Positions 1,974-64,000 of a stretch of 64,000 nt of DNA are shown piece after piece. The notes below the pieces were generated by a model. It was not told where the DNA came from. It worked only from the letters and a program-made list of their open reading frames with translations, and did no database searches. Positions within the stretch are counted from its first letter, which is position 1. Every line of letters begins with the position of its first letter. Made by a program: the position numbers and the translations under genes. Source of the stretch: Terriglobia bacterium (GTDB lineage: Bacteria; Acidobacteriota; Terriglobia; 20CM-2-55-15); the NCBI GenBank assembly GCA_965218585.1, contig CBDCLE010000003.1, positions 64,001-128,000 of the forward strand. The letters are read 5' to 3'.

Positions 1974-3409
1974 AGAACGGACAACGAGGAAGCTGCTGAA
2001 TCAGGAAGCGGGCGATGCGAATGCGAAGCGTGGCAATCGAGCAGGGGTTATGTCGTTCGGGCCGGATCCGGGGTTCCGCGGGGTTTGAAGTGTTTGGGGA
2101 GTTTGGGGACGGATAGTCCAACATGCTCGACAAATGCAGAGGGGGAAAAACGGCTCCGCTCGGCGACCAGGAACCCATAAGAGGCAATACATAAGGTGCC
2201 ATGATGGTGAAATCCACGCCAGCCGCGACCTTCGTAGTGTCCCAGACCGAGTTCCTGCTTGAGTTCCTGATAGTCGCGTTCGATGATCCAGCGCTGTTTG
2301 GCCTGACCGGCCAGATCGGAAAGCGAGGTATGGGCCCCAAGAGTGGAGAGCCAGTACCGGATCGGTTCGGATGCGGTCTTGGGCCACTCGACCAACAACC
2401 ACTCTTTCGGATGCGGCGAGTGGCGCTCGTGATCCAGATGAGCGGGACGAATGCGAACTGCGGCGAAACGGGAACGCAGGGTCTCGGAGGTGCCTTCGCG
2501 CCAGGAGACGTTCTTCCAACGCTGGGGAGACAACGAGAGGGCCAGTTGCTTGACCGAAACCGGTTGATGTTTCTTGTTGCGCTGCATGCGGGTCGGTGTC
2601 CGTCCGCGGCCGGTCAAGGATTTCGGCGGCAAGGGACCCTGGCCCGGTTTCCACACGGTCGTGGTGCCTTGCACCCCTAGGACGTAGCTAAGTCCGAGTT
2701 CGGTGATGCCGTGCCGGAACTTGTAGTTGTTGCCGTAGGCCGTATCGCCCAGAACCGGTGCCGGAGCAATGCCGTCATCGACGGCCTGCCGGATTTGTTC
2801 CAAAGCAATTTGAGGTTTAGTTTGAAATCGAACGTCTTCGGGAATAGCGGCTTTGCTTCGACGTTCCGGATCCTTCGCCCAGGTCTCGGGGAGGTAGAGT
2901 CGCCATGCCACCGGCAAGCTGGATTTCGCTGTCGCCACCGACAGGCTCACCGCCACCCGGCAGTTCTCAGGTTTGCCGACCTGTCCACAGTATTGCCGGG
3001 CCACACCCACCGAGTGGGTCCCCTTTTTCACGAATCCGGTGTCGTCGACAATCCAGGCTTCAATCGGACCGTTGGCTTCCATCGCCCCCAGCGCGTACTG
3101 TCGAACTTCTGCCAACAGAGCCGCATCGTCCCAGGGCGCATCCGCGACCAGATGATGTAGCGACTGGTGCATTCGGCGTACATTATCCGGAGCCAATCGT
3201 GCAGCCATCGGCTCCACACTCTTACGTTTGATCGGCAGCAACAACCCGGTGCAGTACGACTTCAACGGTTCATGACGATCGGCGTGTCCTGCGGCCGACG
3301 CCAGGCGTTCCAAATAGGCCGCAAAACGTTTTTCCTGAGTGCCTGGCGCCTTCGATTTGGCGCTCATGACCGGATGCTAACATAAAATAGACCGTTTGTA
3401 ACATAGTAG
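1946..3409 (-). mobile_element. IS701-family insertion sequence, complete
   Basis: Perfect terminal IRs CTACTATGTTACAAACG (1946-1962) and CGTTTGTAACATAGTAG (3393-3409); 5-bp direct repeat TAGTA at 1941-1945 and 3410-3414. Confidence 0.93.
2048..3367 (-). CDS. IS701-family DDE transposase
   Basis: DDTGFVKKGTHSVGVARQYCG..GK.ENC, VLGDTAYG, RWIIERDYQELKQELGLGHYEGRGWRGFHHH motifs. Confidence 0.95.
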   Translation of the reverse strand: MSAKSKAPGTQEKRFAAYLERLASAAGHADRHEPLKSYCTGLLLPIKRKSVEPMAARLAPDNVRRMHQSLHHLVADAPWDDAALLAEVRQYALGAMEANGPIEAWIVDDTGFVKKGTHSVGVARQYCGQVGKPENCRVAVSLSVATAKSSLPVAWRLYLPETWAKDPERRSKAAIPEDVRFQTKPQIALEQIRQAVDDGIAPAPVLGDTAYGNNYKFRHGITELGLSYVLGVQGTTTVWKPGQGPLPPKSLTGRGRTPTRMQRNKKHQPVSVKQLALSLSPQRWKNVSWREGTSETLRSRFAAVRIRPAHLDHERHSPHPKEWLLVEWPKTASEPIRYWLSTLGAHTSLSDLAGQAKQRWIIERDYQELKQELGLGHYEGRGWRGFHHHGTLCIASYGFLVAERSRFSPSAFVEHVGLSVPKLPKHFKPRGTPDPARTT

Positions 3410-3619
3410 TAGTAGTCAGCATAAAGAATCCCATCCGTTCGAATCGTCTGATGTGCCCGGCGATTTCAGTGCTTCTAAAGGCTTCTGTTTTTTTGCGCAC
3501 GTCAGGGCCAGTTGACAGCACGCCGAAACTAATTCTACACCAACGCTTCTTTGCTAATTGACCCTGTGCCGACACCCCCAGCTGGCAAGCCTTCGATTAG
3601 ATTGAGTTAAGAATAAGAA

Positions 3620-3792
3620 GGGGTCGCGAGGGGCCTCCTGTAGATCCCGGCGAGATCACGATCGGAGATCTAATCTATCTGAACGGTGGCGAGGCAGGTT
3701 TGCCGGCTTCTCTTCCCAGGCTCATCGTCCCTGTTCGAGGTTTTCGACTTGGTTCCGAACGCGCCTCCTCACACGTGCTCCTAACTATCCCC
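3620..3792 (-). ncRNA. Candidate structured ncRNA (rod-like, weakly 6S-like)
   Basis: Intergenic. On the minus strand GTGAGGAGGC pairs with GCCCCTCGC and GAAC..GGGACGA with TCGCCACCGTTC, followed by a U-rich tract. Family not established. Confidence 0.25.
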
Positions 3793-3883
3793 ATTAAGCT
3801 CCCCCTGGGTTATAATTCCAAGGAATCCCCTTTTCTGACCCCTTTGTTGCAGACACTTTTCCAAGCTTCTCCGGGAGGAATCC

Positions 3884-4318
3884 ATGGGACGGAAGTATAA
3901 ACAGCAGGGTTATCAGGAAGTTGGCCAGGAGCGGAGCGGAGGACAACAGAAGCCGCAACCGAAGCGGTCTTCCGATGGCCCCCGGTCGCCCCGCATGCCG
4001 GGATTCCAGGAAGTGATGCGTTGTGCGATGTGCGGCAACATAGTGCCGGCCTTCACTGAAGTCAATGCCGAGAGCCAGTGCTCGAAATGCGGCAGCGATC
4101 TTCAGAGTTGTAAGCACTGCAGACATTTCGATACGGGTGCTTTGCTTGAATGCACCCAGGCGATTCCTGAGCGAATTGTCGCGAAGGATAAGAGAAACGA
4201 CTGTGAGTTTTTTGAAGCACGTACGTCAGTGGAAAAACAAACTTCGTCTCCCAGTAGTGTCACCAGTCCCAGTACGCCTAAGGACGCGCGTAGCGCCTTC
4301 GACGATTTGTTCCGCTAG
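3884..4318 (+). CDS. Cys-rich zinc-ribbon hypothetical protein
   Basis: GGGAGG RBS; CAMCG, CSKCG, CKHC plus two further Cys; ends AFDDLF. Confidence 0.8.
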   Translation: MGRKYKQQGYQEVGQERSGGQQKPQPKRSSDGPRSPRMPGFQEVMRCAMCGNIVPAFTEVNAESQCSKCGSDLQSCKHCRHFDTGALLECTQAIPERIVAKDKRNDCEFFEARTSVEKQTSSPSSVTSPSTPKDARSAFDDLFR

Positions 4319-5960: not shown

Positions 5961-6554
5961 CTAATGCACCCCGAACTTGATCGCTTCCAGAACCGCCTCC
6001 ACCACTTCGGGATCAAACTGAGTGCCCTTGCCCAGGATCAGTTCCTCAGCAGCCTCCCGAGTGGTTAGTGCACGCCGATAGGGCCGATCATTCGTCATCG
6101 CGTCGTAAGCGTCCAGAACTGCAATCACGCGGGAACCGAAAGGTATTTCATCGCCTGCGAAGCCGTTTGGATATCCCGAGCCGTCGTACCACTCGTGATG
6201 GTGCAACACGACATCGGCCACCTGCCTGAAGTTTTCTGTCTGCTGTAGGGCATCGTACCCAAACTGGGCGTGACCCTGCATGATTTGGCGCTCCTCCACG
6301 GTTAGAGGTCCCCGTTTGTGAAGGATGGGATCTGGGATTGCGATCGTACCCAGATCGTGGAGATGTGATGCGGTTTCAACGAGTTGCGTTTCTCTGGACG
6401 AGAGCTCAAAGCGCTTGGCCACCTCCCTGGCGAGGGAGCAGATCCGCTCGCTGTGCATGCCGACACTGCGGTCCCGCATGCGTAGCAGATTGGCGAATGC
6501 CCCGGTTTGTGACTGAATTCCTTCGATTTCCAGCTCTTCAAGTATCGTCGACAT
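5961..6554 (-). CDS. Stand-alone HD-GYP c-di-GMP phosphodiesterase
   Basis: LHDLG, HHHEWYDGSGYP, AVLDAYDAMTNDRPYR, GTQFDP. Confidence 0.93.
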   Translation of the reverse strand: MSTILEELEIEGIQSQTGAFANLLRMRDRSVGMHSERICSLAREVAKRFELSSRETQLVETASHLHDLGTIAIPDPILHKRGPLTVEERQIMQGHAQFGYDALQQTENFRQVADVVLHHHEWYDGSGYPNGFAGDEIPFGSRVIAVLDAYDAMTNDRPYRRALTTREAAEELILGKGTQFDPEVVEAVLEAIKFGVH

Positions 6555-6606
6555 TTGTTTCTCCAGTGATCTGGTCGTTAGTCGGACTTCCCGCCTTCAC
6601 TCAGTT

Positions 6607-6633
6607 TTATCGGCAGGAACAGCAGAAAGCTTA
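6607..6633 (-). promoter_or_regulatory. sigma28 (FliA/SigD)-type promoter of the HD-GYP gene
   Basis: TAAG-N15-GCCGATAA on the minus strand, ~50 bp upstream of the ATG. Confidence 0.75.
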
Positions 6634-6650
6634 GTTTTTTTTACGCGGTT

Positions 6651-7035
6651 CTATGGAAGGGGCTGTCAAGAGAAACACGTCCCCGCCGAGCGGACCACCG
6701 GACCCAACACTGTCGTGGCAGCCAGCCCCTGTCTCCGTTGAGACGAACTGTTGATCCGGCATCGCAGAGAAGTCGATCACTCATCACAACGTGGTGTGGT
6801 TTCGAGAAACTGAAAAGCGCAAAGGGGTCGTGATTGCCGACCACGGTTCTATCTGAGCCTCGAGGGCTATCGCTTTTCCAGGTCGTGCGAGGGGGGATAG
6901 AGTATTACATGGGCCTTCAGCAAGCGCTGTGTGCCAACCGCGTATCGGATCCTCACCCTCGACCCTACCGTTCCGACGCCTCACCGACGACGAGCGGTCG
7001 AATGCCTCGCGCTGTCGGCAGAAGTCTGGAAACGG
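6651..7035 (-). ncRNA. Putative bridge/seekRNA region of the IS110 element
   Basis: Long 3' non-coding end with stems CGAGGG..GGAT/ATCC..CCTCG and CTGGAAAAGCG/CGCTTTTCAG; an internal loop contains TACGCGGTT, matching the flank. Confidence 0.6.
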
Positions 7036-8097
7036 CTATGTCGCCAAGTTCAGTTTCTTTGCGTTAAACGTGTCTCCTTTCTTCCACATCTTCAGTGCGG
7101 TCGCTGCAATCTTCCTCGCCAGTGTCAGCCGAGCCATCTCCTTACGCTTGCCGTCTTTCTGGAGCCCCTCCAGGTAGCTTTTCCAAGGTTCGGCCCCCAT
7201 GCCTCCGGTCGCCGCCCCGATGAACACATCTTTCAAACGTCGGTTGCCGTTGCGGTTCAGTCCCCGCGTGGCGATCGGCTTTCGACGACGTACCACACGA
7301 CTCCCTTCCTGCTCATACTCCGCACTCATGTGCATTGCCACGGCCAGACCGCTGTAGTTCCAGAGCTGGCGTTTGGTTCGAAATCGATGCGGGGTGTCCC
7401 CCGTCGCTACAATCAAGGCGCAACGTATCGGTCCCAACTGGGGAATCGTCTGCAATATCCCCACCGCACGATGCTTGCAGCTCTCGGTTAACATCGCCAG
7501 CTTCGCTTTTTTTCTTAACCCTCTCAGATGATCCAGCTCCTCATACAACCATCCGGTACGCCGCCGTGCACCGGTATTGGCGAGCTGTTCGATCCAGTGT
7601 TCCCGCTGCGATGGGAGGTAGACGCCGTGGCCCGGCGTCCGGATCCCACGTCCTCGATACATTGCCTTGATCCGAACCATCGTCCGCTGCGTATCCAGGG
7701 TCAAGGTCTCATATCCGCGGACCAGTTCTTTCAACGTCCGCGTCGCATCGTGCCCGTGGTAGACCGACCGCAGCCATCCGGCCCGGAGCAGCTCGGCCAG
7801 TTTCAGGGCATCCACCCGGTCGGTCTTGGACCCGTCACTGAGCAGTTTGTTCCGTCTGGGATCACACACGATCACTTCGCTCACATATCCCCGGACCACG
7901 TTGTAGAGCCATTCGGCCTGCGTGGTTTCTTCAAACGTCACGTGCAGCTCACCACTCAGACTCTCCAGCAAATCAATGATTGGCCCGGCCTGGGTCTCTA
8001 CGATCTTTTCCCAGACCAGTTTGCCGTCTGCGTTTAAGACCATCACCACCGTCGTTGCCTGGTGCACATCCATGCCGATATACTTGGCCTGTTTCAT
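7036..8097 (-). CDS. IS110-family recombinase/transposase
   Basis: YIGMDVH, TFEE, KTDRVDA (DEDD RuvC-like); TIPQLGP, YSGLA....S, GNRRLK, LARK. Confidence 0.95.
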   Translation of the reverse strand: MKQAKYIGMDVHQATTVVMVLNADGKLVWEKIVETQAGPIIDLLESLSGELHVTFEETTQAEWLYNVVRGYVSEVIVCDPRRNKLLSDGSKTDRVDALKLAELLRAGWLRSVYHGHDATRTLKELVRGYETLTLDTQRTMVRIKAMYRGRGIRTPGHGVYLPSQREHWIEQLANTGARRRTGWLYEELDHLRGLRKKAKLAMLTESCKHRAVGILQTIPQLGPIRCALIVATGDTPHRFRTKRQLWNYSGLAVAMHMSAEYEQEGSRVVRRRKPIATRGLNRNGNRRLKDVFIGAATGGMGAEPWKSYLEGLQKDGKRKEMARLTLARKIAATALKMWKKGDTFNAKKLNLAT

Positions 8098-8209
8098 TTA
8101 CGTGCTCCTTTGTCTTTGAATTCAACGCAGCTACGTTGAATGGGTTGTTGTCGGGAGATTTTCCTCCTGGCAACAGCCGACAAAGGGGCGTCCTTCCTTA
8201 TAGCGTATT

Positions 8210-8625
8210 CCGGAATCGAAATGAAACTCGACGTGAGCGTTAATGAAAATCTCTGGGTGAACCTGGCCCTGGATGCCGTCGACACCGAACTCAAAACCAC
8301 TGCCGAAACACTGCCTCGGATTCCGCCGCTACGAGGAACGATCGGCCTCGATATCCGATACGGCGGCTTGAGCGTAAAGCCGGAGCTCGTGCTGGCGGAC
8401 CGGAGAGACGACGTCTTCAGCACCGAAACGGAAACGGCCGGTTACGGATTGGTCAACCTGACAGCCTCGTATACTGTCCCGCAACCCCACTTCTCACACC
8501 ACCTGTCCCTCAGCTGGTTCAACGCGACAAACACGCTGTACCGCAACCACCTCAGCTTCATCAAAGATCTCGCGCCGGAGATTGGTAGTGGCGTGCGGAT
8601 GTCCTATTCCGTGAAGTTCTTCTAA
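8210..8625 (+). pseudogene. 3' fragment of a TonB-dependent receptor, truncated by IS110
   Basis: LPRIPPLR, ETETAGYGLVNL, NATNTLYRNH and a C-terminal Phe are typical TBDR barrel end; the frame begins at the IS end. Confidence 0.85.
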
Positions 8626-63484: not shown

Positions 63485-63511
63485 TTATCGGCCGGAGACA
63501 CATCATCCTTA
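63485..63511 (-). promoter_or_regulatory. sigma28-type promoter of the HD-GYP/GGDEF gene
   Basis: TAAG-N15-GCCGATAA; the first T coincides with the IS110 core. Confidence 0.75.
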
Positions 63512-64000
63512 ATACGCTATAAGGAAGGACGCCCCTTTGTCGGCTGTTGCCAGGAGGAAAATCTCCCGACAACAACCCATTCAACGTAGCTGCGTTGAAT
63601 TCAAAGACAAAGGAGCACGTAAATGAAACAGGCCAAGTATATCGGCATGGATGTGCACCAGGCAACGACGGTGGTGATGGTCTTAAACGCAGACGGCAAA
63701 CTGGTCTGGGAAAAGATCGTAGAGACCCAGGCCGGGCCAATCATTGATTTGCTGGAGAGTCTGAGTGGTGAGCTGCACGTGACGTTTGAAGAAACCACGC
63801 AGGCCGAATGGCTCTACAACGTGGTCCGGGGATATGTGAGCGAAGTGATCGTGTGTGATCCCAGACGGAACAAACTGCTCAGTGACGGGTCCAAGACCGA
63901 CCGGGTGGATGCCCTGAAACTGGCCGAGCTGCTCCGGGCCGGATGGCTGCGGTCGGTCTACCACGGGCACGATGCGACGCGGACGTTGAAAGAACTGGTC
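63511..64000 (+). mobile_element. IS110-family element, copy 2 (partial, inverted relative to copy 1)
   Basis: Appears identical by eye to the reverse complement of 7720-8209. Confidence 0.93.
63623..64000 (+). CDS. IS110 recombinase, copy 2 (5' part)
   Basis: MKQAKYIGMDVHQ..., ATG 112 bp from the left end as in copy 1. Confidence 0.93.
   Translation, partial: MKQAKYIGMDVHQATTVVMVLNADGKLVWEKIVETQAGPIIDLLESLSGELHVTFEETTQAEWLYNVVRGYVSEVIVCDPRRNKLLSDGSKTDRVDALKLAELLRAGWLRSVYHGHDATRTLKELV

Follow-up and report, generated by a model that had tools for sequence, protein, structure and literature searches.

It is well documented that insertion sequences of the IS110 family are guided by a bridge RNA that combines a target loop with a donor loop and that, in the IS1111 group, is located in the right end of the element (PMC11208160). 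For IS1111 elements such as ISEc11, ISKpn4, ISPa11, and ISPst6, a seekRNA is described in which the segment complementary to the top strand stands 5' of the other segment, the two overlapping at the insertion point (Siddiquee et al., 2024; PMC11187229). In IS621 (Durrant et al., 2024; PMC11208160), as the excision structures present it, the right-target guide base-pairs on the top strand with the core and the right flank, the left flank being the partner of the left guide (PMC13626964). In this study, we describe a stretch of 64,000 nucleotides from the genome of a Terriglobia bacterium (Acidobacteriota), referred to here as the window, which on sequence grounds very probably carries an active and recently expanded IS of the IS110/IS1111 type, with an IS1111-like architecture and a serine/DEDD recombinase that would be guided by a bridge (seek) RNA derived from the 3' end of the element. 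An earlier note on this DNA had proposed an IS110/IS1111-type element whose target loop matches its own insertion sites, and this is borne out by the Pfam domains of the protein, the flanks of 16 copies, and covariation across lineages. Bridge-type RNA-guided systems have been known since 2024, and the element is a new and divergent Acidobacteriota example of them; the mechanism itself is not new. At the level of titles and abstracts, no report on such elements in Acidobacteriota was found in the literature, and the supplements of PMC11187229 and PMC11208160 may list a relative.

The likeness to the IS1111 elements for which a seekRNA is described (PMC11187229) extends over most of the architecture. 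Like them, the window element has a long non-coding region behind its gene (386 nt on the 3' side vs. 109 nt on the 5' side), subterminal inverted repeats with short terminal extensions, and an outward -35 hexamer at the right end. The order of the two target segments is also the same (6945-6937 before 6908-6902), with the overlap at the insertion point. Moreover, the pair ISEc11/ISXne4 is described as retargeted by changes confined to the loop (PMC11187229), as is seen in the relatives of the window element. The differences from this group are the GLAVAMHMSA motif and the Terriglobia host of the element described here, and a clear second, donor-type loop, where the parts of PMC11187229 drawn on here stress target matches only. 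With IS621 (PMC11208160; PMC13626964) the window element shares a pseudo-symmetric RNA of two loops for target and donor, two guides per loop, one for the left half on the bottom strand and one for the core and right half on the top strand, a core of 2 nt at both junctions, and a DEDD domain followed by a Tnp domain that bears a putative catalytic serine. Unlike the window element, IS621 is described with its RNA in the left end before the gene and with the guides in reversed order; its core is CT rather than AC, its subterminal inverted repeat spans only 2-3 bp, and its recombinase is about 26% identical to that of the window.

The IS occupies positions 8206..6650 on the minus strand, which is the strand of all features given below, and its 1557 bp consist of one copy of the core (AC, 8206-8205) and the body, running from ACGCTATAAGG at the left end to CCTTCCATAGA at the right end. 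The host genome (26 contigs, 4.55 Mb) contains 16 copies with 99.7-100% identity. When these were aligned together with their flanks, five columns varied within the 1557 interior positions (8206-6650), and the sequences outside were unrelated; unitigs from two public DNA runs break at 6650 and at 8206. In the right exterior (6649-6642; consensus A[C/A]CGCGTA), seven of the eight positions vary among the 16 copies, and the contrast between these variable positions past the right end and a near-invariant interior indicates that this stretch is target DNA lying outside the IS. Comparison of one copy (L004) and its flanks with four genomes of the same genus gave no contiguous empty site, the two flanks lying on different contigs there. 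The homologue of its right flank in these relatives reads ...GCAGCA-ACGCGTA..., indicating that CGCGTA belongs to the host sequence. With 16 intact, near-identical copies and flanks that are non-syntenic in relatives, we read the element as one that is currently reshaping its host genome.

From the copy alignment and the flank counts, the right junction (6641..6649) comprises a target-derived copy of the core (6649-6648) and the right target flank CGCGTAT, and the left target flank (8207..8211) is GGAAT at this copy and GTAAT in the consensus of the 16 copies. The left subterminal inverted repeat, TAAGGAAGG (8192..8200), is separated from the core by the 4-nt extension GCTA, and the right one, CCTTCCATA (6652..6660), by the 2-nt extension GA. 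Compared by eye, 8200-8192 and the reverse complement of 6660-6652 agree at eight of nine positions, and relatives carry a perfect 9-bp repeat, TATGAAAGG, at the same place; the pair is absent from the 25 longest pairs of a repeat search. Subterminal inverted repeats of 7-17 bp are a feature of the IS1111 group, and the 9 bp found here fall in this range.

The recombinase (transposase) gene lies at 7036..8097 and encodes 353 aa in a frame that is open in all 16 copies. Both domains of the IS110 family in the wide sense are present, the N-terminal DEDD RuvC-like domain (PF01548, DEDD_Tnp_IS110; E 3.7e-17, 63 bits against a cut-off of 29) and the C-terminal Tnp domain (PF02371, Transposase_20; E 4e-9, 37.2 bits against a cut-off of 21.3). 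The protein is full-length but divergent, since it matches positions 1-342 of the 343 of NF033542 with 127.2 bits, under the cut-off of 140, which is an NCBIfam equivalog naming threshold and not a mechanistic feature. In a collection of 72,556 plasmid records, 669 of them matching, its identity to any IS110-family gene is at most 28%, and the nearest named genes, of the IS621, ISAtu7, and ISSso6 families, are all 24-28% identical, so that a placement in a tree would be weak. Among proteins of solved structure, a sequence search with phmmer found ISCro4 (PDB 9t56; E 1.3e-9) and IS621 (8wt6_A; E 3.3e-7); ISCro4 is the best of these relatives and aligns over N- and C-terminal stretches, yet it is distant. 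Relatives of the recombinase (E 1e-30 or better) occur in 10 of 41 related genomes, the host included, and a scan of species-representative genomes gave 227 encoding stretches, the best 80 of which come from Terriglobia and other Acidobacteriota.

Residues D10, E56/E57, D93, D96, and S258 are invariant in six relatives at 64-82% identity, and motif spacing, together with the motif quoted below, makes them candidates for the DEDD/serine catalytic residues. The HMMER alignment places the serine region of ISCro4 differently from the S258 assignment, and the alignment is unreliable there. The C-terminal motif reads G250 L A V A M H M S258 A, which keeps the spacing of the IS1111 motif GL-P----S(t)G with V for P and A for G; occasional TA variants of that motif are described (PMC11187229).

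Within the 386 nt of non-coding sequence 3' of the gene, about 125 nt are predicted, by consensus fold and covariance model, to form the core of a bridge/seek RNA (6836..6960), in which a target-binding domain (P1, loop, P2) precedes a donor-binding domain (P3, loop, P4) and each domain consists of a stem with an internal loop. In the consensus fold, the 5' strand of P1 (6949..6960) pairs with its 3' strand at 6889-6898 (6889..6898). P2 (6912..6935) is a hairpin between the two target guides (GGC/GCC, with the inner CAGC-GCUU-GCUG), the sequence of which differs from lineage to lineage while the hairpin is kept. P3 (6881-6888 with 6836-6842) encloses the donor loop and the P4 hairpin (6865-6868 with 6856-6859), the whole spanning 6836..6888. 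The stems around internal loops that the earlier note had supposed were recovered both in an RNAalifold consensus of eight sequences, with two domains, each of stem, internal loop, and inner hairpin, and all four guide stretches in loops, and in a single-sequence fold of 6962-6834, which gave the same structure at an energy that is not unusual (z -0.72). A fold of the whole 385-nt end was set aside (z = +1.64; 97 of 100 shuffles were as good).

Fold energies being unremarkable, the structural support rests on covariation. A covariance model built from the eight sequences matches 34 of 37 loci of relatives at about 50% identity (E 1.7e-10 to 5.2e-22), always behind the recombinase gene. In the resulting alignment, which is fitted to the covariance model itself and so favours the structure, 94% of the cells are paired vs. 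32-51% when the partners are slid, changes on both sides occur in 10 of 25 pairs, and none of 500 shuffles reaches any of five measures. In the wider family, four pairs of helix 1 (P1) have changed on both sides. G-U pairs are frequent, so the structure fits the recombinase-sense strand only. A search of Rfam with positions 6400-8400 gave no match at E up to 1.

The internal loops of this predicted non-coding RNA match the target and the donor. The 5' strand of the target loop carries the right-target guide AUACGCGGU (6937..6945), complementary to the top-strand core AC plus CGCGTAT, and the 3' strand carries the left-target guide GUAAUAC (6902..6908), which equals the consensus left flank GTAAT plus the core AC. 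In the donor loop, the left-donor guide AUAGAAC on the 3' strand (6846..6852) equals the right end of the IS, ATAGA, plus the core AC. A candidate right-donor guide, AGCG, on the 5' strand (6871..6874) is short and uncertain; it stands 3 nt before the inner helix, in the register of the right-target guide, and would pair with about four bases of the core and left end, and it is not conserved in two of the relatives (L065 and L066).

The starting point of the earlier note was that TACGCGGTT (minus strand, 6944-6936) is the exact reverse complement of AACCGCGTA (6650-6642), and the two strings are indeed located there; the repeat search likewise returned the loop and the flank as a 9-nt pair with 100% complementarity. 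The second domain said to carry ATAGAA matching the right end is also found, as part of ATAGAAC (6852-6846), whereas the GTAA assigned to the opposite strand of the target loop is present within GTAATAC (6908-6902) as part of a longer guide, GUAAU plus the core AC. On its own the 9-mer match is only mildly unusual, as the 9-mer occurs twice in the 64-kb window vs. 0.30 expected and 4 of 100 shuffles give at least two, and it is the other copies and the relatives that lend it weight. Two further matches are absent in relatives, namely the ninth pair of that 9-mer (between U6936 and the final A of the IS) and an 11/12 match of GUAAUACUCUAU to the left junction, and each is either a coincidence or a possible handshake-type contact.

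Across the 16 copies, the consensus counts at the right junction are A15 C11 for the core and C15 G13 C14 G14 T13 A10 T11 for the flank, those of the left flank at -5 to -1 are G 11, T 9, A 13, A 8, and T 10, and every consensus flank base matches the guides. The right guide forms 7-9 of nine pairs in 14 of the 16 copies, and in one of the remaining two the junction is shorter by a base. The earlier note had expected right flanks similar to the loop once all copies were collected, with the 9-mer not fixed at every end, and this is what is seen: AACCGCGTA stands exactly at the right junction of 4 of the 16 copies, the other 12 differing from it at one to four positions, and the right flank resembles the loop (at least seven of nine pairs) in 14 of the 16. 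The host genome holds no unoccupied perfect 14-mer target site and four within two mismatches, indicating that its insertions have gone into imperfect sites.

Ends and flanks were also read directly from multi-copy lineages of related elements. All lineages have a common frame, ...UCGAGGGUGAGGAUC - variable - hairpin - variable - UCUAUCCCCCCUCG..., followed by ...AGCGAUAGCC-loop-GGCUCAGAUAGA(A/U)C...GGUCGG, and the core plus right flank of every lineage has its reverse complement in the first variable stretch of that lineage, the second being identical to its left flank plus core. The right guide TACGCGG of G000 goes with the right flank CCGCGTA, and that of G007/G017 (82% identical to the window element), TAAGCGG, with CCGCTTA at three of three junctions, so that relative to the window element both guide and flank are one base apart. 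L065 has the guide CGGGGAG and the flank CTCCCCG, with eight of nine pairs when the register is anchored on the inner helix as in the others. The right guide CAAGATG of G001 goes with C-ATCTTG, and GTATAGGCG of G021 with C-GCCTATAC. In G002 the guide CAAGTTG is found with the flank C-AACTTG and in G003 TAACTTG with C-AAGTTA, an instance of single-base covariation (CAAGTTG with CAACTTG vs. TAACTTG with CAAGTTA). The left guide behaves in the same way, GTACTG-TC in G002 corresponding to the left flank and core G[C/T]A[C/T]TG-TC and TATAG-TC in G021 to GTATAG-TC. The donor guide tracks the right end as well, being AUAGAUC in relatives with a TC core and AUAGGAC in G038, where the right end is ATAGG.

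When guides were scored against flanks of seven lineages at a fixed register, the true assignment ranked alone at the top of the 5040 permutations, both for the right guide and for the two guides combined, and this was unchanged without the core positions; the left guide alone ties with one other permutation because two lineages share a left guide. In a lineage at about 50% identity that is represented by many assemblies, the guide ...AGGUGG occurs with the flank CACCT at 23 of 23 distinct sites and ...AGCUGG with CAGCT at 13 of 15 sites, a guide G thus going with a flank C and a guide C with a flank G (eight loci in which the pattern of the right end was not found are left out, and each duplicate flank enters the count once). 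Copies within a lineage are related and are not independent events in the permutation statistics or in these counts, and the p-value of the counts is overstated. At the level of sequence, the guides of each lineage fit their own flanks best, and the covariation of guide and flank across orthologs, which the earlier note had anticipated, is real.

The core dinucleotide can be read from the same comparison. In three lineages of the TC type, the two junctions have exactly two bases (TC) in common; TC also closes the left guide, and the guide of the donor loop is AUAGA-UC there. The window element, its 82% relative, L065, and L066 have AC at the aligned positions of both guides, and AC is found at the junctions of the AC-type relatives wherever these are readable (the contig of L066 keeps the left junction only). 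The core changes in step at three places, namely at both junctions, where the left guide ends, and in the donor guide, with AC in the G000 clade and TC in the other clade, and as judged from these alignments the core of the window element is AC. Insertion is site-specific, with this short core at both junctions and no further duplication.

The left junctions of the 16 copies all have AC, and the right junctions have AC in 10 copies, AA in five, and GC in one. The 6 of 16 right cores that are not AC are not predicted by a simple model of identical cores. Random segregation of a heteroduplex would be expected to leave the deviant core on either side, yet in six of the six copies with differing cores the donor core AC is kept on the left and the deviant core, presumably that of the target, on the right. 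This one-sided core might be explained if a single product strand survived, for instance when one strand exchange is completed by replication. That the recombinase represents a branch of its own, and a deep one, among bridge recombinases (identity to named family members of 28% or less, under the family cut-off, SA for SG/TG), joining tolerance of a mismatch at the second core base to a one-sided resolution of recombination, is a reading that we regard as unlikely.

The ends given above differ from those of the earlier note, which had the IS run from TACGCT to CCATAG around a core AA, with TACGCT as the -10 element of the circle junction. Both copies in the window fit that model, with GGAA and TTAA before TACGCT and a right junction ATAG-AA-CCGCGTA, and the left flanks it gave, GGAA for copy 1 and TTAA for copy 2 (window 63511 onward), are as it described them provided that one counts from TACGCT. 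The base before ACGCT, though, is T in 10, A in four, and C in two of the 16 copies, and AA stands at -3/-2 in six of 16, followed by T (AA-TACGCT) in five. A base (8207) that is T in only 10 of 16 copies belongs to the flank, so the IS starts with ACGCT, and TACGCT would not be at the circle junction. Relatives share exactly TC at both junctions where the window element reads AC, and the left and donor guides end in AC here and in TC there; with AC given by both junctions, by the donor guide, and by the left guide at its 3' end, the AA core falls, and the whole model in this form is the least probable of the alternatives.

It might also be supposed that the protein alone chooses the site, the recombinase recognising ACCGCGTA-like DNA and the complementary 9-mer being a protein-binding repeat or a coincidence. 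The mild improbability of the 9-mer match by itself agrees with this, as does the fact that all the evidence is indirect as to RNA; but relatives with recombinases 64-82% identical have different flanks, to which both loop strands have changed to match while the stems stayed constant, and a protein-binding repeat needs no sense and antisense segments that each end at the core, which leaves such a choice by protein very improbable. Nor do we favour a guide made of DNA, in which the non-coding end would pair with the target as folded single-stranded DNA in the manner of IS200/IS605. Single-stranded DNA of the same strand would display identical pairing and covariation, the evidence being all at the level of DNA sequence. 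Against it, the protein has IS110-family domains, and the guide of that family is described as an RNA that co-purifies with the enzyme (PMC11187229; PMC11208160); the guide region lies at least 185 nt from the right end and not in a terminal hairpin; and metatranscriptome contigs that cover the target-loop domain point, weakly, in the same direction. These contigs stem from two runs of a single study and span 6876-7048 and 6876-7189 in a variant with 95-99% similarity; they come without strand or ends, DNA carry-over is possible, and both stop at 6876. Stretches of the element that no RNA contig covers carry no weight either way. A DNA guide is as improbable as a choice by protein alone.

The reading that we prefer is that of a recombinase guided by the RNA of its own 3' region, and by analogy with the published systems the RNA would be the active molecule, its loops reading target and donor. 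The element would excise as a circle in which ...CCATAGA is joined to ACGCTATAAGG..., with a predicted junction of ...CCATAGA-AC-GCTATAAGG..., or in longer form ...TTGACAGCCCCTTCCATAGA-AC-GCTATAAGGAAGG.... At this junction the outward TTGACA would come to lie within 18 nt of TATAAG, which would drive transcription of the recombinase gene and of the RNA behind it. In the complex of RNA and protein, the 5' strand of the target loop, AUACGCGGU, would pair with the core AC and CGCGTAT on the top strand of the target, and the 3' strand, GUAAUAC, which is the same as GTAAT plus AC of the top strand, would pair with the bottom strand. The AUAGAAC of the donor loop would likewise read the right end of the element itself with the core, the guide for the left end being short and uncertain. 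The complex would then recombine the circle junction with sites like GTAAT-AC-CGCGTAT, strands being exchanged at the AC core. Both the circle and the chemistry of strand exchange are taken here from the mechanism published for the family and would apply by analogy.

With regard to the junction promoter, the outward-facing -35 hexamer TTGACA of the right end (6664..6669) is present where the earlier note had placed it (6669-6664) and is kept in all related lineages examined. The candidate -10 element, TATAAG, is in the left end (8197..8202) and would follow the -35 after 18 nt in the predicted circle junction; in the joined ends of relatives CAGTAT or CATTAT would lie at 17 nt from TTGACA. Junction promoters belong to the published picture of the family (PMC11187229), and TTGACA may by analogy be part of one here. 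No sigma-70-like site was found inside the element on the minus strand. Contigs of two DNA runs and two RNA-library runs contained no circle-junction joint, which is uninformative because contigs drop rare forms.

Recombinases of the IS110/IS1111 type are under development as programmable tools for DNA insertion, and divergent orthologues with guides that can be read from the genome are useful starting material. The lineages compared here form a natural series, with at least eight lineages with different targets, single-base switches of guide and target, and both AC and TC cores. Most lineages offer 7 to 16 independent insertions, and the series maps loop positions to target positions without experiment.

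Beyond the two domains, a long-range helix of 10 bp is predicted between the last codons of the recombinase gene and the region just after the bridge RNA. Its 5' arm, AGAAACUGAA (7049..7058), is 100% complementary to 6805-6814, where the repeat search located the 3' arm, UUCAGUUUCU (6805..6814). By eye, relatives have complementary pairs at both of these positions, the sequences being different in the lineages at about 50% identity. In the reading regarded above as unlikely, this conserved helix, which would clamp the stop region of the recombinase to the 3' side of the RNA, may mark how the guide is excised from the mRNA.

The flanks of the insertion sequence in G000, the genome that holds the window, have only about 14 nt in common. 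In the G001 lineage (L023, L055, L037, L056, L057, and L043) the insertions lie in long repeated host sequences, with flanks conserved over approximately 17-22 nt or more per side, and the same setting is found in the G038 lineage (L026, L038, L044, L059, and L062), in which flank conservation exceeds 50 nt. REP-like targeting has been reported for other IS1111-type elements. The pattern of insertion in both related lineages is REP-like targeting, which they have in common with those elements.

The dinucleotide core at the left junction (8205-8206 in the window copy) is AC in all 16 copies of G000. At the right junction (6648-6649 in the window copy) it is AC in 10 copies, AA in five, and GC in one; the deviant core is found on the right side in every case and never on the left. 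The junction of the copy at C1:70825 is one base shorter than in the other copies and could be an AA-type junction that has lost one nucleotide in the A run. A second copy of the element is present on the plus strand at 63511-64000 and continues past the window end, so that the window includes no more of it than the left end and a portion of the recombinase gene. When the whole G000 genome was searched, no perfect GTAATACCGCGTAT site was left unoccupied, and the unoccupied near-matches were one site with one mismatch and four sites when up to two mismatches were allowed. In this genome the 8-mer ACCGCGTA is rarer than expected from base composition (104 occurrences vs. approximately 171).

The DNA that encodes the left guide seems to have been used as a target at G038 locus L058 (G038:C8), where a tandem pair of copies is found on the minus strand at about locus positions 2649-3934. 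One copy is inserted inside the bridge-RNA gene of another, precisely where the left-guide DNA (TATAAAC-AC) ends, and this DNA mimics the target's left half. A 95-99% variant present in two metatranscriptome runs is changed at 6909-6910, the two bases that directly precede the left guide on its 5' side, so that CAU of the RNA strand becomes CGA; both the left and right guides are unchanged.

On the minus strand, codons at the very end of the recombinase gene (7049-7058; AGAAACUGAA) form a perfect 10-bp long-range helix with 6805-6814, directly 3' of the bridge RNA. Relatives carry complementary pairs at both equivalent places, and the lineages at approximately 50% identity use other sequences for them, for example CUGAAACC/GGUUUCAG. 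This helix may mark how the RNA folds or is processed out of the mRNA.

The left flank of the window copy carries a partial TonB-dependent receptor barrel (8140-8625, plus strand) of which only the last ~135 residues are present (PF00593 profile positions 327-435 of 436), and the right flank is the region upstream of an HD-domain gene (5961-6554, minus strand; PF13487). Because these two flanks are not continuous with each other, an IS-mediated deletion or rearrangement is suggested. The two flanks of another copy, L004, likewise lie on separate contigs in relatives.
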